Below, piece after piece: positions 23,294 to 29,506 of a DNA stretch of 64,000 bases (positions are counted from its first letter, which is position 1; the number at the start of each line of letters is the position of its first letter). The notes below the pieces were generated by a model that did no database searches, was not told where the DNA came from, and was given only the letters and a program-made list of their open reading frames with translations. This DNA is from Escherichia phage mistaenkt: the sequence record MN850587.1; one strand, 5' to 3'. Both the position numbers and the translations under genes were made by a program.

Positions 23294-23500
23294 TTAATTC
23301 TTTTTGAAAATCTTCTCAACAAACTTTTTGAGTTTGCCGCTAATGTCAAGATGGATTTCTAGAATCTCAAAGATTACCCATACTAGCATAGCACCAAACA
23401 AAGCACCTTGTTTGATATCAATAAACAGGTTCACAAAGAAGAAACCGAGTACAATCATCGGTGCATCAACTGTGAAACCTTCCCACAAACGCTTAAGCAT
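23294..23500 (-). CDS. Small membrane protein (68 aa)
   Basis: Two hydrophobic segments (MIVLGFFFVNLFI, ALFGAMLVWVIFEIL). Confidence 0.5.
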   Translation of the reverse strand: MLKRLWEGFTVDAPMIVLGFFFVNLFIDIKQGALFGAMLVWVIFEILEIHLDISGKLKKFVEKIFKKN

Positions 23501-23735
23501 TGTTCACCTCTGCCATAAAGTCTTGTAGTGTACCAACCGGAGTCAGGACAGTATCTTCAGTCTTCATAATGAACGGCATCTGACGAACTGGCATCTTTGC
23601 AATATCCATCAGGTCTGACAGTTCATAGTCCTGTCCTAACATTCTTACAATGTGGTCAATACCACGAGCCTTCGCAAAGTTCTTTGCAGTTTCACACTGA
23701 GGGCAACCAGTTTTGGAGTAAATTACGTAAGTCAT
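23493..23735 (-). CDS. Glutaredoxin or NrdH-like redoxin (80 aa)
   Basis: Active-site CPQC near the N-terminus, thioredoxin-fold size, between nrdB and nrdD. Confidence 0.75.
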   Translation of the reverse strand: MTYVIYSKTGCPQCETAKNFAKARGIDHIVRMLGQDYELSDLMDIAKMPVRQMPFIMKTEDTVLTPVGTLQDFMAEVNNA

Positions 23736-25117: not shown

Positions 25118-27352
25118 TTAAACTCCGCAACCTTCACAGTAAGCGTCTTGGAGTGCTGACTTACCAACACCAATACGACTGTTAAGGTAGTACATAGTTT
25201 TCATCCCAACTGAGTTAGCATAAATCATGTACTTCAAAGCTTGCTCTAATGATACCTTTTTCGATTTTGAATAGTCAACATAGAAATCTGAAGAGATAGC
25301 TTGACCAGTGAATTTTTGAACAATTGCATAGCAATCAATCATATCAAAGGTGTCAATATCCCAAGCAATTTCATAGACATACTTCAACTCTTCGTAATCT
25401 GGAACGATAAATAAAACGTTACCAGTTGCTGACTTCTTGGTTAAGATGAAGTCACGAATTGGGTACAAACCATTTGTCGTATTAGTTGCCAGTGAAGAAC
25501 TCTCATTAGGCATGTAAGCCTCAAGTACAGAGTTTCTGATACCACCATTTGCTTTAATACGGTCTGCTAAGTCATCCCAATCATAACGAAGTTTTGCATC
25601 GTGTTTTGTATCAATCTTCCTGTTAGCTGTCTTCGGAGGAACCCAACCTTCAGGATACTTGGTGAACTTCATATATTCAGGTACACCACGCTCTTTTGCA
25701 AGTCTTAGTGAAGCCTCATGCAGATAGTAAGAGTGCATCTCTGCAAGTTCATGTAGCTTCGTTTTACCTGCTCTTGAAGAATAGTTCACGTAGTTCTTCG
25801 CAAGGTAGTGAGCCACATTCGTAAGGCCAATCCCAACAGAACGACGTTTCTGAACGTGGTTACGCATTGACGGATACGGATAGTCCATAAGGTCAATAAC
25901 GGAGTCAACCATTGCAAGAGCATAATAAGCAACGTCAGCGTATTCATCTTCTGTGATTCTCCCTGCTACCAGACTAGCTAAGAAGCAAAGAGCAACTTCA
26001 CCATCTTCTTTAGGTGCTGTGTAACTGTAAAGGTCACGTTCATCTTCAAACCCGTAAACTGGCAGTATAATTTCCATGCACAAGTTAGACATTTTCAAAG
26101 CTTCTTTAAACGGTGTGTGTGTGTTCGCATTGTTCGTAAAGAACGGATACACACGACCTGTGGCATAACGTTGCTGGATGAACAGCTTGGCAACTTCACG
26201 AGCCTTAACACGTTTATGCTTAACACCTGAATGCACTGCGTGACCGACTGCCATAGCAAACTCATCAGCAGATGCTGTGTAGAACATGTCATAAAGCTTT
26301 GGAGCGTCCTTGTAAGAGAACAGCAACCAATCTGTGTCATACTGTACACACTGCCAGAAATAGTCATTTGCACCAAATGAATAGTCCATCTCATTAATAC
26401 GCTTCGAAGGAACCGTTGTAGGATGCTTCAAACGCAGTAAATCTTCAATCTGCGGGTCTAGGGCAGTATAGAAGTTGTTAGCTGAACCACCACGACTCTT
26501 CTGCTTATTGGCCTCTACAGCAGCACGTACAAGCTTGTAGTAAGGAAGCTTACCCATGTGTTCAATGGTGTTTTGACGAATACCATCACCAATTGTACGG
26601 GTCTCCATAAGCATACCAATACCAGCTTGCTTGGTGGTCATATCATAAGCTACCTTAGTAGCAATGCCAAGAGACTCAGCAGTGTCATTAGCCTTGATTA
26701 AGCAGCATGACGCATAACCTGACTTAGTAGCACGTAAACCATTCAGATAAGGCGTAGGGGCGTTAATCTTCAGGTCAGACAGGTAAGTGTACAGCTTGAT
26801 AACATCTTCCAGTCTACGGTGCTTAGGTTGTCTCTCAAAGGCTTTCATAGCCATACCCATAAACATAAATTGTGGGGATTCAAACAGACGACCTGACTTG
26901 ATATCTCGGATGCCATACTTGTCACGGAACTGTTTCAGTACTGCATAACCGTAAGAGATATCTTTTGAGTGAACAATGTGACCTTGTAAATAGTCAATCT
27001 CTTGTTCGGTGTAATCCATGTGTTCCCACAAACCCATTTGCTCCATCTTCATAACGAAGTTGAACAGTTGAGGAACTTTTGTGAAACCACCAAAGGCTTC
27101 TTTGTAGATGATACCAAGGAGTAATCGACCAGCCATATCAGAGTACTCTTGAGTCTGCTTATCAATACAAACGTCAATCATAGCTTGGTGCATCTCTTTG
27201 GTAGAGCAACCTTCATAAACACGCTTCATGGCTTCCATAGTTACTTCTGACCAAATGATTCCTCGTTTGTCAGCCCATGAAGCCCATTTGTTTAAACGTT
27301 CTGGTTCGAATGGCACGATTGTACCGTCAGATTTGCGAATGGTCTTAATCAT
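25118..27352 (-). CDS. nrdA: Ribonucleotide reductase class I large subunit
   Basis: 744 aa; N-terminal ATP-cone-like region; C-terminal CEGCGV redox-active Cys pair. Confidence 0.9.
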   Translation of the reverse strand: MIKTIRKSDGTIVPFEPERLNKWASWADKRGIIWSEVTMEAMKRVYEGCSTKEMHQAMIDVCIDKQTQEYSDMAGRLLLGIIYKEAFGGFTKVPQLFNFVMKMEQMGLWEHMDYTEQEIDYLQGHIVHSKDISYGYAVLKQFRDKYGIRDIKSGRLFESPQFMFMGMAMKAFERQPKHRRLEDVIKLYTYLSDLKINAPTPYLNGLRATKSGYASCCLIKANDTAESLGIATKVAYDMTTKQAGIGMLMETRTIGDGIRQNTIEHMGKLPYYKLVRAAVEANKQKSRGGSANNFYTALDPQIEDLLRLKHPTTVPSKRINEMDYSFGANDYFWQCVQYDTDWLLFSYKDAPKLYDMFYTASADEFAMAVGHAVHSGVKHKRVKAREVAKLFIQQRYATGRVYPFFTNNANTHTPFKEALKMSNLCMEIILPVYGFEDERDLYSYTAPKEDGEVALCFLASLVAGRITEDEYADVAYYALAMVDSVIDLMDYPYPSMRNHVQKRRSVGIGLTNVAHYLAKNYVNYSSRAGKTKLHELAEMHSYYLHEASLRLAKERGVPEYMKFTKYPEGWVPPKTANRKIDTKHDAKLRYDWDDLADRIKANGGIRNSVLEAYMPNESSSLATNTTNGLYPIRDFILTKKSATGNVLFIVPDYEELKYVYEIAWDIDTFDMIDCYAIVQKFTGQAISSDFYVDYSKSKKVSLEQALKYMIYANSVGMKTMYYLNSRIGVGKSALQDAYCEGCGV

Positions 27353-27404: not shown

Positions 27405-27740
27405 TTAAATGCTAAAGATTTGTTTACTTTGCCAAAGTTCATAGAACTTGTGAGAAACCTTAGTCAGTGAAGCTTTTGACATTGCGTTGCAGTACCACCA
27501 ACGTTTAGTTTCATCAAACAGTTTTTCAAGGTCTTCGTGCAGGTTATCTTCCATTCGTGAAATAACAAAGTTACCACGCTTCTTACCAGTAACACGACCA
27601 AACTTGATATCACTTCGCCCTTTACAATCCTCTGTGTACATCACTATGTCACCGAACCGTAAAGGTTTGTCAAACTTATCTACTCCAAGTTCAACGCCAG
27701 CTTTTACATCTTCAATTGTAAGCTTATTTGCTTTAGACAT
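27405..27740 (-). CDS. Hypothetical protein (111 aa)
   Basis: ORF in operon. Confidence 0.6.
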   Translation of the reverse strand: MSKANKLTIEDVKAGVELGVDKFDKPLRFGDIVMYTEDCKGRSDIKFGRVTGKKRGNFVISRMEDNLHEDLEKLFDETKRWWYCNAMSKASLTKVSHKFYELWQSKQIFSI

Positions 27741-28065
27741 GATATTTATCCAAGTTTCGTTTCAGGTAAAGCCACCCATCATCAGTGCGCTCAACACCCA
27801 TGAACAGTGGAGCCGTTACAACCTTTCCAAACGTATTGCGATGTTGACAAATCTCATAAGAATACGTTTTCTCAATGTTTAGGCCATATTTGAAAAGCAC
27901 TGCTTTCAAGACCTGTTCATTATCCAGTAAAGTTTCTGGTGTCTCTCCATATTTTACTAACAGTGAATCATTCATAAACACTGTCATAGAGAGATTATAG
28001 TTTGAGAAATGGCTCTTTGGAGCCACCTCTTCAGTATTAATGTTCTGTGAATCCATTATAACCAA
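27733..28065 (-). CDS. Hypothetical protein (110 aa)
   Basis: ORF in operon. Confidence 0.55.
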   Translation of the reverse strand: MVIMDSQNINTEEVAPKSHFSNYNLSMTVFMNDSLLVKYGETPETLLDNEQVLKAVLFKYGLNIEKTYSYEICQHRNTFGKVVTAPLFMGVERTDDGWLYLKRNLDKYHV

Positions 28066-28792
28066 CCCCTTTTAACCAATTCTTCAGGTTATTTGCATCA
28101 TAGTTCAGTTTCGGGTATGAGGTCACATGGAACTTCTCACCGTCATAGTAAACAATATCTGCAAGCCATAATCCGTTTTCTCGGCAGAAGTCTTTGTCTG
28201 CTTTCGAACTGATTGGTCGAACTTCTGTGAAGTCACTCAATCCAAGGTCTTTCAAACTTCCTACAAGACCTTTACAGATAACGCATGTGTCAGATGTTAC
28301 CACGAACAATTCTTTGCTTTCAAGTTCCGCGATGAACTCTGCAAGCTGTACTTTAGGAAGATTAGACTGCTTCATAACCTTCTTATCAGACTCACGGATA
28401 ATGGCGTACCATTCTTTTCCGTCAATCGTTGAAGCACGTACACGACATTCATCACCAGTACGCTTTTCGATATCTGCGAGACGTTTCAAAGCTTCTTCGT
28501 AGTTATCAGTATACTTCAGGTTGTTATTCTCACAGACTGCTTTCATAGCTCCGTCATGGTCATGCTGTGAAAGGTAAATCAGTCCATCAAGAACATACTG
28601 TAAATCTGCCTGAGCATCAAGAGCCTCAATAGGGTCTTTTTCATCAACAGCTTTCAAAAGCTCTTTGGCTTCTTCTAACATGCAAAGTGCTTGACTACGC
28701 ATCGAAGACCAGTACTCAGGTGTATAAGGAGTCAACGGGGTCTTACCACAACGCTGATTCCAAGTTAGAACGGATTCTCTGGAATTAAACAT
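28037..28792 (-). CDS. Two-domain protein: all-alpha MazG-like N-terminal region plus thioredoxin-fold-like CxxC C-terminal region (tentative)
   Basis: N-terminal acidic helical pattern EEAKELLKAV...EALDAQADLQYV; C-terminal VVTSDTCVICKG. Confidence 0.4.
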   Translation of the reverse strand: MFNSRESVLTWNQRCGKTPLTPYTPEYWSSMRSQALCMLEEAKELLKAVDEKDPIEALDAQADLQYVLDGLIYLSQHDHDGAMKAVCENNNLKYTDNYEEALKRLADIEKRTGDECRVRASTIDGKEWYAIIRESDKKVMKQSNLPKVQLAEFIAELESKELFVVTSDTCVICKGLVGSLKDLGLSDFTEVRPISSKADKDFCRENGLWLADIVYYDGEKFHVTSYPKLNYDANNLKNWLKGVGYNGFTEH

Positions 28793-29001
28793 TAAACCTC
28801 CTGAAACAGTTTCTGCTGAGACTCAATATAATCCAGTCTGCCTTTCAGTTCAACACGTTTGTTAATCAGGTGCTGAATCTGGGACTCAAGAGCCTCCATT
28901 TCGGACTCCGTAGCTGCTTTAGCTTTGACAATTGCATCTTTCAGTGCTGCAATGTGGCTGTCAATTTTAGCTACGTGGTCATTCTTAATTTTGTTAAACA
29001 T
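28792..29001 (-). CDS. Small coiled-coil protein (69 aa)
   Basis: Heptad-like charged helix. Confidence 0.5.
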   Translation of the reverse strand: MFNKIKNDHVAKIDSHIAALKDAIVKAKAATESEMEALESQIQHLINKRVELKGRLDYIESQQKLFQEV

Positions 29002-29005
29002 AATC

Positions 29006-29506
29006 TTATTCTCTCTCGTTAAGTTTCATGATTTTATGGATTCTCTTCTCAGCATCTTCATAAGTCTCTTTGGTAAGAAACTTGATTGCTGCAATGTTTG
29101 CATTGTAGAAGAGTCGAAGCTTGGAGTCAATCCTTTTTGTCATGACGTCAAACTTATGTTGGAGGTTAGCTTCTCCGTAGACCAACCCACCTCGCGTATA
29201 ATAAGTTTGCACAATATAGAAGTCAAACTCTTTTTCACCGAAAGTTTCAATATCTTTCTTAATGTACTCAGAAGAGGTCTGGTAAACCATCCAGTCACTC
29301 TCTTTTGTCACAATCTTACGTCTGGCCTTTCCAGCTACTTTCTTCTTGGTGACATTGTTAAACTGCTTCTTACCAATGTAATACTGTCCAGTCTTTTTGC
29401 AGTACACTAAGTAAACGAAACCAAAATACTTAGCGGGGTCAATCTCCCCGCACAGTGAAATCCAATGCCCATATTCAGGGCAATTGCCAAAACCTTTAAT
29501 CTTCAT
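29006..29506 (-). CDS. GIY-YIG family endonuclease (putative homing endonuclease)
   Basis: FGFVYLVYCKKTGQYYIGKK matches the GIY...YIG motif; 166 aa; inserted between the exonuclease gene and downstream genes. Confidence 0.6.
   Translation of the reverse strand: MKIKGFGNCPEYGHWISLCGEIDPAKYFGFVYLVYCKKTGQYYIGKKQFNNVTKKKVAGKARRKIVTKESDWMVYQTSSEYIKKDIETFGEKEFDFYIVQTYYTRGGLVYGEANLQHKFDVMTKRIDSKLRLFYNANIAAIKFLTKETYEDAEKRIHKIMKLNERE

Follow-up and report, generated by a model that had tools for sequence, protein, structure and literature searches.

A MazG-like protein of Felix O1-type phages with a C-terminal CxxC domain of predicted thioredoxin fold that lacks the cis-proline

According to the title of Mota et al. 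2016 (cited in PMC10014863), DR2231 of Deinococcus radiodurans, an enzyme of the MazG type, acts exclusively on dUTP. The MazG protein of Mycobacterium tuberculosis hydrolyses all canonical and non-canonical nucleoside triphosphates (NTPs), and an ExxE...ExxD Mg site has been described for this enzyme and for the dUTPase of Campylobacter jejuni (PMC10014863). A cyanophage MazG is an active pyrophosphohydrolase (PMC6850273), and the title of that paper states that it does not hydrolyse (p)ppGpp. Here we describe a phage gene in which a MazG-like module is joined to a second domain of predicted thioredoxin fold. It was found in a stretch of 64,000 nucleotides (nt) from Escherichia phage mistaenkt (MN850587.1), which as a whole is called the window below. 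A first-pass annotation, made from the letters alone, had tentatively proposed such a fusion at positions 28037-28792 with the strand unstated. A coding sequence for 251 amino acids (aa) plus stop fits these positions exactly and lies on the minus strand (28037..28792), as judged from the list of open reading frames (ORFs), PHROG 2144 and tblastn.

The N-terminal module comprises residues 1-150 (28343..28792, minus strand), as delimited by Pfam, the structural model, the matches to DR2231 and stand-alone homologues. Pfam family PF01503 (PRA-PH, MazG-like clan) matched residues 12-86 with an E-value of 2.6e-7 and 31.4 bits, the gathering score being 21.3 bits. An AlphaFold model of the full-length protein, built on 11 homologues, had a mean predicted local distance difference test (pLDDT) score of 88.3 and placed helices at residues 4-14, 25-50, 54-75, 79-93 and 98-112, mostly with pLDDT >90. 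The module consists of an all-alpha core of the MazG/PRA-PH type (helices 4-112), a beta-hairpin (116-133) and a basic segment with R133, K138 and K141. In Foldseek searches DR2231 was the closest solved fold for this half, with a template modelling (TM) score by target of ~0.66 and 15-24% identity. There was no Pfam dimeric-dUTPase match for the protein. The MazG-like nature that had been proposed for the N-terminal half is borne out by PF01503, PHROG 2144 and the Foldseek match to DR2231, and residues 1-~150 belong to the MazG/PRA-PH all-alpha NTP pyrophosphohydrolase superfamily.

The catalytic residues of this superfamily can be recognized in alignments of 20 homologues, some of them fused, some stand-alone and some more distant. 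The first acidic metal-binding motif, EExxE (E40-E41-x-x-E44; 28661..28675, minus strand), is invariant in all 20, and an acidic cluster on the next helix with E56, D59 and D63 (28604..28627, minus strand) supplies the second half of the metal site in these alignments. The full set of invariant residues is E40, E41, E44, A48, D63, V86, N90, K93, K138 and K141, with D59 and R133 nearly invariant. The spacing from E44 to E56 is short (11 residues), and one member has an acid at position 60 instead. These acids fit the ExxE...ExxD metal site as defined in PMC10014863, and the basic residues K93, R133, K138 and K141 would be expected to bind phosphate. The conservation of both sets shows that the catalytic apparatus of an NTP pyrophosphohydrolase is intact and under selection. 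Cys87, in the motif VCxNN, was considered as a target of the CxxC domain and rejected: many stand-alone modules carry Cys87 and the fused protein P0038 has Ser.

The C-terminal domain spans residues 161-244 (28061..28312, minus strand), as delimited by models, Foldseek and profile matches. Modelled alone with AlphaFold on an alignment of 10 diverse members, it reached a pLDDT of 91.3 and a predicted TM score (pTM) of 0.81. The topology is beta-alpha-beta-alpha-beta-beta-alpha, with strands 161-165, 189-191, 212-216 and 221-225 and helices 171-182, 197-206 and 233-242. The first strand is followed by CVIC (C170-x-x-C173; 28274..28285, minus strand) on the first turn of helix 1, at its N-terminus, so that the strand and CVIC noticed in the first-pass annotation are indeed present. 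All of the 50 best PDB matches obtained with Foldseek were thioredoxin-fold proteins, among them thioredoxins, glutaredoxins, domains of protein disulfide isomerase (PDI) and ERp proteins, calsequestrin and DUF836 proteins, with TM by query <=0.68 and root mean square deviations of 2.4-3 Å. A search with the full-length structure retrieved small glutaredoxins and NrdH at TM by target 0.63-0.73. Profile matches based on sequence were weak and nearly all pointed towards the thioredoxin fold: the thioredoxin domain of adenosine 5'-phosphosulfate (APS) reductase (E=0.045), yeast Grx1 (0.064), DUF836 (0.12) and NrdH (0.66). Pfam Glutaredoxin (PF00462) was reached by one of the 10 members (1.6e-5) and Glrx-like weakly by four, and the C-domain of the window itself had no Pfam match at E<=1 or E<=10 and no NCBIfam match either. 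According to the models, the assignment to the thioredoxin fold is secure. The glutaredoxin-like fold suggested earlier for this half is thus upheld, and the unrelated folds that had been named as the outcome that would speak against the proposal were not seen in the structure prediction. Searches by domain, which had been recommended as a check, gave PF01503 for the N-terminal half, and weak glutaredoxin, thioredoxin, NrdH and DUF836 profiles with a confident thioredoxin-fold model for the C-terminal half.

Across the 10 members, which reach down to 27% identity, only six positions of the C-domain are invariant: C170, C173, A198-D199 where helix 2 starts and W239-L240 within helix 3. The dipeptide between the two cysteines varies (VI, II, AI, PI, RM/SM, EI, FI, TQ and SL; family pattern C-x-[IMQL]-C), and CxxC itself is retained in all members examined down to 27-37% identity, including the homologues of Listeria phage LPML1 and of Erwinia phages. 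A third cysteine, C203, is replaced by Ala in two lineages. That two cysteines are invariant in varying surroundings and at the canonical position argues for thiol chemistry, either redox or metal binding.

Residues 210-211 (L-A; 28160..28165, minus strand) occupy the site before strand 3 where thiol-disulfide oxidoreductases of the thioredoxin fold almost always have a cis-proline, and no member examined has Pro there. The register was set by hhalign against a canonical thioredoxin with GLPTT from a phage contig (L011, see below), and the HMMER alignment of the C-domain to the thioredoxin domain of APS reductase requires an insertion at this point. The cis-proline is present in this L011 thioredoxin and in the phage's own glutaredoxin (QMPF). 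The glutathione-binding motifs (TVP, and GG/CDD after strand 4) were absent from the alignment of the 10 members, as was the WSGFRP motif of NrdH, the sequence after strand 4 being TSYPKL, TNYGSE, INFRSI and the like. Lacking both the cis-proline and the glutathione motifs, the C-domain would not be an ordinary glutathione-dependent glutaredoxin. On its sequence features we would place it outside the glutaredoxin, NrdH and thioredoxin families. The loss of the cis-proline and of the glutathione and NrdH motifs, together with the regular glutaredoxin encoded beside nrdB, argues against a general reductase. A recent duplication of the phage glutaredoxin was considered as the origin of the domain and dismissed, as BLASTP gave no significant match and hhalign aligned 27 columns around CxxC only.

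Between the two domains lies a linker of residues 142-160 (28313..28369, minus strand), recognized from the pLDDT values per block of the model, which are 72-81 here. The pTM of the whole protein is 0.57 although each domain is confident on its own. Together, these values suggest that the C-domain is tethered, and the linker is probably flexible in view of the model. The architecture as a whole is captured by PHROG 2144 ('MazG-like pyrophosphatase'), which matched the full-length protein with E=4.3e-94, residues 1-250 being aligned to positions 1-290 of a profile of 290. Taken alone, the C-terminal 114 aa matched positions 169-290 of the same profile with E=4.7e-31, and both domains are therefore covered.

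A tblastn search found the fused protein at full length in 301 of 304 matching phage records. Identity was 77-99% in Felix O1-like phages of Escherichia, Salmonella, Shigella and Citrobacter and 36-42% in relatives infecting Erwinia, Pectobacterium, Hafnia and Yersinia. Such full-length conservation, in 301 records and down to 37% identity, together with CxxC among the six invariant positions of the C-domain, goes beyond chance. An exhaustive phmmer search with the C-domain alone against 1.84 billion representative proteins returned six real matches only, all of 244-251 aa and with the same architecture. A further protein with 12 matches to the C-domain (P0021, 2481 aa) is repetitive and cadherin-like with no CxxC, and was discarded as a composition/repeat artefact. 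As a lineage-specific trait, the fusion is confined to Ounavirinae-type phages, and the gene belongs to the conserved core of the Felix O1-type (Ounavirinae) group. Judged by these sequence searches, its C-domain has diverged past recognition from other thioredoxin-fold proteins.

The first-pass annotation had called a redox-linked enzyme of this kind next to ribonucleotide reductase (RNR) genes unusual. In the sense of rare this does not hold, since Felix O1-like phages have the gene in their conserved core and it already carries a MazG-like label. A 'redox-linked' function would be plausible, with the caveat that the cis-proline and the glutathione/NrdH motifs known from working glutaredoxins are missing. 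Records describe the product as 'hypothetical', 'MazG-like pyrophosphatase' or 'phosphoribosyl-ATP pyrophosphohydrolase'. The second domain is not named in any of the database records examined, and a full-text literature search found no description of it or of this MazG/thioredoxin-like architecture. What is new is the second domain, an atypical CxxC thioredoxin fold with no cis-proline that has gone unannotated in a known and widespread phage family.

Distant whole-length matches in the viral structure library BFVD (Pseudomonas phages SM1, pf16, H101 and phiA8-29) were examined as further MazG-thioredoxin fusions and rejected, as their architecture is different when judged by the counterpart PaP1 gp077. 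In this 269-aa protein (L007:310-1119, minus strand) the MazG helices are C-terminal, behind an unrelated N-terminal region. At another locus (L030:1387-2064) the N-module has an N-terminal extension of ~85 aa in place of the C-terminal thioredoxin-like domain. The two arrangements mean that MazG-type modules in these phages have been fused to other domains more than once. We also noted that OK283618.1, 'Listeria phage LPML1' (L001), is recorded with Listeria monocytogenes as host and as a member of the Ounavirinae, and has a Felix O1-type replication/RNR cluster with the fused gene at 39% identity. Within an otherwise enterobacterial phage group the Listeria host label looks doubtful.

The N-module also exists without its partner. 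A profile search identified stand-alone proteins of 158-163 aa (e.g. P0042 and P0051) that cover exactly the N-module at 30-36% identity, and in BFVD the stand-alone module A0A516L8P2 matched with a TM by target of 0.88. An alignment-based locus search gave 15 loci, and the neighbourhood survey covered 12 loci with a non-fused N-module. In 8 of these 12, the thymidylate synthase gene thyX adjoins the N-module or lies within a few genes of it, and at two loci (L017 and L018) it is the very next gene. The usual company further includes NT5C, deoxynucleoside monophosphate (dNMP) kinase and RNR genes. On contig L011 and its sibling contigs, NT5C and dNMP kinase are followed by a 58-aa ORF, the N-module and, after a gap of 30 nt, by a 95-aa thioredoxin, ThyX, a 121-aa ORF and NrdA. 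The thioredoxin encoded there is canonical (WCPNC ... GLPTT). We regard this arrangement as the Ounavirinae fusion in split form; among independent hints at cooperation between the two parts it is the best. Scans with HMM/phmmer and for CxxC detected no thioredoxin-like neighbour at the other 11 non-fused loci. Candidates for further split cases, namely the immediate neighbours at L012, L013 and L015 and CxxC-containing ORFs at L010 and L030, did not look thioredoxin-like.

In several phages a second, different nucleotide pyrophosphohydrolase adjoins the stand-alone N-module just before ThyX. At L010:6485-7015 and L014:1680-2183 it belongs to PF18909 (dGTP_diPhyd_N), and at L012:3471-4151 and L019:4559-5221 the neighbour has a possibly DUF3310-like N-terminus by eye. 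The presence of a second pyrophosphohydrolase beside the N-module suggests that deoxynucleoside triphosphate (dNTP) substrates are split between two enzymes.

In the window, the fused gene sits in a nucleotide-metabolism cluster. RNR genes had been reported nearby, and nrdA, for the large subunit of class Ia RNR (25118..27352, minus strand; ORF translation and phiSUSP1 annotation), is indeed three genes away, with two small ORFs in between. A Shine-Dalgarno sequence AGGAGG can be read 4 nt before the ATG (28797..28802, minus strand), and the ATG overlaps the stop codon of the upstream ORF (TAATG). At the 3' end the gene runs into the next ORF, which encodes a small protein of 107-110 aa (27733..28065, minus strand; PHROG 4007, E=1e-60). 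The overlaps at both ends indicate a tightly packed, co-oriented gene array. The window DNA is 96-97% identical to that of Escherichia phages EP1 and phiSUSP1 (Ounavirinae, Suspvirus). The order on the coding strand of phiSUSP1 is dNMP kinase, primase/helicase, exonuclease, GIY-YIG endonuclease, a 69-aa ORF, the MazG-like gene, two small ORFs, nrdA, a small ORF, nrdB, glutaredoxin, a small ORF, nrdD, a homing endonuclease, a small ORF and nrdG. The glutaredoxin of the window, which adjoins nrdB, is a canonical phage protein of 80 aa with CPQC and a QMPF cis-Pro loop (23493..23735, minus strand; PF00462, E=7.4e-7). At its C-terminus NrdA has the sequence ...LQDAYCEGCGV, and CxxC tails of this type are reduced by thioredoxin or glutaredoxin. 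Two candidates for a partner of this tail are thus encoded by the phage, namely the glutaredoxin with CPQC and the domain with CVIC.

The reading that we consider reasonably probable is that of a two-domain enzyme of the phage deoxynucleotide-supply module, composed of a pyrophosphatase and a thiol-based docking or switch domain. The N-domain would hydrolyse (d)NTP to (d)NMP and pyrophosphate (PPi) by the two-metal MazG mechanism. Its most likely substrate would be dUTP, and its hydrolysis would both prevent the entry of uracil into phage DNA and provide thymidylate synthase with dUMP. The closest complete genome, that of phiSUSP1, encodes ThyA, dihydrofolate reductase (DHFR), dNMP kinase, class Ia and class III RNRs and glutaredoxin, and no dUTPase or dCMP deaminase is annotated in it. 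A tblastn search with E. coli Dut gave no match to a canonical Dut, either in the window or in the phiSUSP1 genome, which is complete; as a positive control, the same query found canonical Dut in 2434 other phage records. With the ThyX/RNR association of the module, DR2231 as its nearest fold and no canonical Dut, hydrolysis of dUTP to dUMP and PPi is the most economical proposal, and dUTP is accordingly put forward here as the putative substrate on comparative grounds. In the course of the Dut searches we noticed that Campylobacter phages A11a and A18a (MG065691.1 and MG065686.1) have a region with 100% protein identity to E. coli Dut, which suggests host or contaminant E. coli sequence in these assemblies.

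Within this overall explanation, our preferred reading of the C-domain, at about even odds, is that of a docking or switch module by which the pyrophosphatase is connected with the thiol-dependent machinery of RNR. The dithiol would most likely dock the enzyme to a thiol-bearing partner, for example the CxxC tail of NrdA, or else serve as a thiol-disulfide switch through which pyrophosphatase activity depends on the same redox state that drives ribonucleotide reduction. The fusion would probably have arisen from an adjacent pair of a MazG-like gene and a thioredoxin gene, as seen today in one other phage lineage. We think it unlikely that the C-domain represents a new type of cis-Pro-less thioredoxin-fold thiol switch, by which the redox state of the RNR system gates or targets a dUTP/dNTP pyrophosphatase. 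If it does, such a switch, for instance through a mixed disulfide with the NrdA tail, would physically join the reduction of nucleotides, the removal of dUTP and the synthesis of thymidylate in a dNTP 'factory' of the phage.

Several observations weigh against the proposed function. The sequence of the N-domain does not reveal substrate specificity, the host's own Dut could suffice, and other phage MazG proteins prefer other dNTPs (PMC6850273). The Foldseek E-values of the N-terminal half against DR2231 are marginal (~1e-2), no PDB relative of the N-domain was detectable by sequence, and none was significant for the whole protein either. The cis-proline before strand 3 is missing in 10 of 10 diverse members, with A, G or S at position 211, and AlphaFold did not confidently predict the geometry between the two domains. 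With a canonical glutaredoxin beside nrdB, the phage has no need of a further reductant for RNR. The split arrangement occurs at one of the 12 non-fused loci, i.e. in a single lineage, and its thioredoxin is weakly similar to the C-domain (hhalign E=0.017), with CxxC and strands in register. Finally, the literature search turned up no biochemical data for any member of the fused family.

Other explanations concern either the substrate or the second domain. It is possible, if doubtful, that the N-domain acts on something other than dUTP, such as another canonical or a damaged dNTP, in house-cleaning of oxidized or deaminated nucleotides or in dCTP/dGTP turnover, or on a nucleotide of host signalling or defence, in which case the thioredoxin-like domain would provide a link to oxidative stress. 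The broad promiscuity of the MazG family (PMC10014863) and the activity of the cyanophage enzyme mentioned above (PMC6850273) are consistent with this. So are the likeness to DR2231, which is at the level of the fold only, and the dGTP-diphosphohydrolase-type enzymes beside some stand-alone relatives, with the division of substrates that they suggest. It is opposed by the tight association with thymidylate synthase and RNR, repeated across lineages, and by the finding of no other dUTPase in the reference genome phiSUSP1. As for signalling, the title of PMC6850273 excludes (p)ppGpp for the cyanophage MazG, and as for defence, the surroundings of the gene show no sign of a defence or anti-defence context. 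The label of phosphoribosyl-ATP pyrophosphohydrolase (HisE), an enzyme of histidine biosynthesis, is used in many GenBank records, and the sole Pfam match is to a family named PRA-PH. However, PF01503 is the name of a broad MazG-like family, the closest fold is that of a dUTPase-type MazG, the complete genome of phiSUSP1 contains no genes for histidine biosynthesis, and a context of dNTP synthesis was found in every lineage sampled. HisE is thus very improbable and effectively refuted by gene context.

For the second domain, we judge it rather unlikely that it is a degenerate, non-redox thioredoxin fold with a structural, oligomerization or protein-binding role, possibly with the CxxC pairs of two subunits that ligate a metal or Fe-S cluster. 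In that case we would simply be dealing with a MazG-like pyrophosphatase that has an accessory domain. The missing cis-proline in all 10 diverse members and the missing glutathione-binding and WSGFRP motifs would fit such a module, as would the failure of Pfam and NCBIfam to recognize the C-domain of the window and the presence of catalytically inactive calsequestrin, PDI b domains and ERp27 among the structural matches. MazG-type enzymes are oligomers, which could bring CxxC pairs together; a four-cysteine site within one chain is excluded because C203 is dispensable, being Ala in two members. Degeneration does not explain well that both cysteines are invariant while the surrounding residues vary freely, nor their exact placement at the helix-1 N-terminus, the site of redox-active CxxC motifs. 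Another alternative, a working hydrogen donor for the phage RNR like NrdH or T4 glutaredoxin and hence a true bifunctional enzyme, appears more unlikely still. The C-V-x-C type of CVIC resembles the sites of NrdH (CVQC) and T4 glutaredoxin (CVYC), both fold and profile searches retrieved NrdH structures, the gene is three genes from nrdA with its CxxC tail, and on L011 the canonical thioredoxin lies between the N-module and ThyX/NrdA. Against this, the phage and its relatives already encode a canonical glutaredoxin beside nrdB, the cis-proline and the WSGFRP motif of NrdH are missing, and the CxxC dipeptide is not conserved across the family. For these reasons we prefer a docking or switch domain to a general reductant.

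Two neighbouring genes of the window deserve mention with respect to their annotation. The small protein encoded at 27733..28065 belongs to a family in which S23, L54, G58, H72, R73, G87, R90 and D92 are invariant in the alignment, and which travels with the cluster of N-module, ThyX and RNR in 8 loci on unrelated phage contigs. Examples are L013:1422-1685, L008:7603-8004, L015:4522-5070 and L007:21496-21885 (PaP1 gp111). PHROG 3506 and the PaP1 gp111 record call this family 'thymidylate synthase', which for a small protein of 107-130 aa looks like a propagated error. The gene at 29006..29506 (minus strand) encodes a SegE-type GIY-YIG homing endonuclease according to Pfam (PF19835, E=5e-27). 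It is labelled 'NAD synthetase' in the RefSeq entry of phiSUSP1 and in PHROG 447, a mis-annotation that extends across many Ounavirinae records.

Felix O1-type phages are widely used for typing, biocontrol and therapy of Salmonella and E. coli. The fused gene is a conserved core gene of their early region, present in ~300 records, and the label 'phosphoribosyl-ATP pyrophosphohydrolase' on such records is misleading. The tethered CxxC domain gives a testable hypothesis for dUTP handling and the supply of thymidylate synthase in a phage with no canonical dUTPase, and suggests a possible physical or redox link between nucleotide sanitization and ribonucleotide reduction. It is also a natural case of a thioredoxin fold that keeps an invariant CxxC and has lost the cis-proline, a combination of some interest to the enzymology of this fold. 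In practice the gain is modest, namely better annotation and not a new kind of system.

Compared to known systems, the N-module shares with DR2231 and 'DR2231-like' MazG-type enzymes the common all-alpha core and the acidic metal-binding residues on adjacent helices, and viral proteins labelled 'DR2231-like' were also among the structural matches of this half. Unlike DR2231, the phage module has a shorter spacing between the acidic motifs, an extra beta-hairpin and a conserved R-x-x-D-x-K-x-x-K segment, and the protein carries a C-terminal thioredoxin-fold domain. The stand-alone phage N-modules (P0042, P0051 and A0A516L8P2) have the same invariant catalytic residues and a neighbourhood of NT5C, dNMP kinase, ThyX and RNR genes, but they stop where the linker begins and lack the thioredoxin-fold domain. 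That domain in turn has the fold, the size and the position of CxxC at the N-terminus of helix 1 in common with small glutaredoxins, NrdH-redoxins and DUF836 proteins (7c10 cGrx1, 4hs1 NrdH and 1ttz XcR50). It differs from them in having no cis-proline before strand 3, no glutathione motifs and no WSGFRP, and in being fused to an enzyme instead of free-standing, and its family has conserved features of its own, S-x-A-D at helix 2 and W-L-K in helix 3.

Two further systems are of help in considering function. Phage T4 gp56 is a dCTPase/dUTPase in the T4 dNTP-synthesizing enzyme complex, alongside RNR, thymidylate synthase and dNMP kinase, with which it shapes the dNTP pool. It provides a functional analogy for the proposed role; gp56 has no thioredoxin-fold domain, and T4 needs a dCTPase to exclude cytosine, of which there is no indication in Felix O1-type phages. 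Thioredoxin-fold proteins of the Spx/ArsC type use CxxC as a redox switch. They were not among the structural matches of the C-domain, have a different helical insertion and are not fused to an NTP pyrophosphatase, so the resemblance is by concept only; as such, they offer a precedent for a CxxC motif that serves as a regulatory thiol switch or interaction module and not as a general oxidoreductase.

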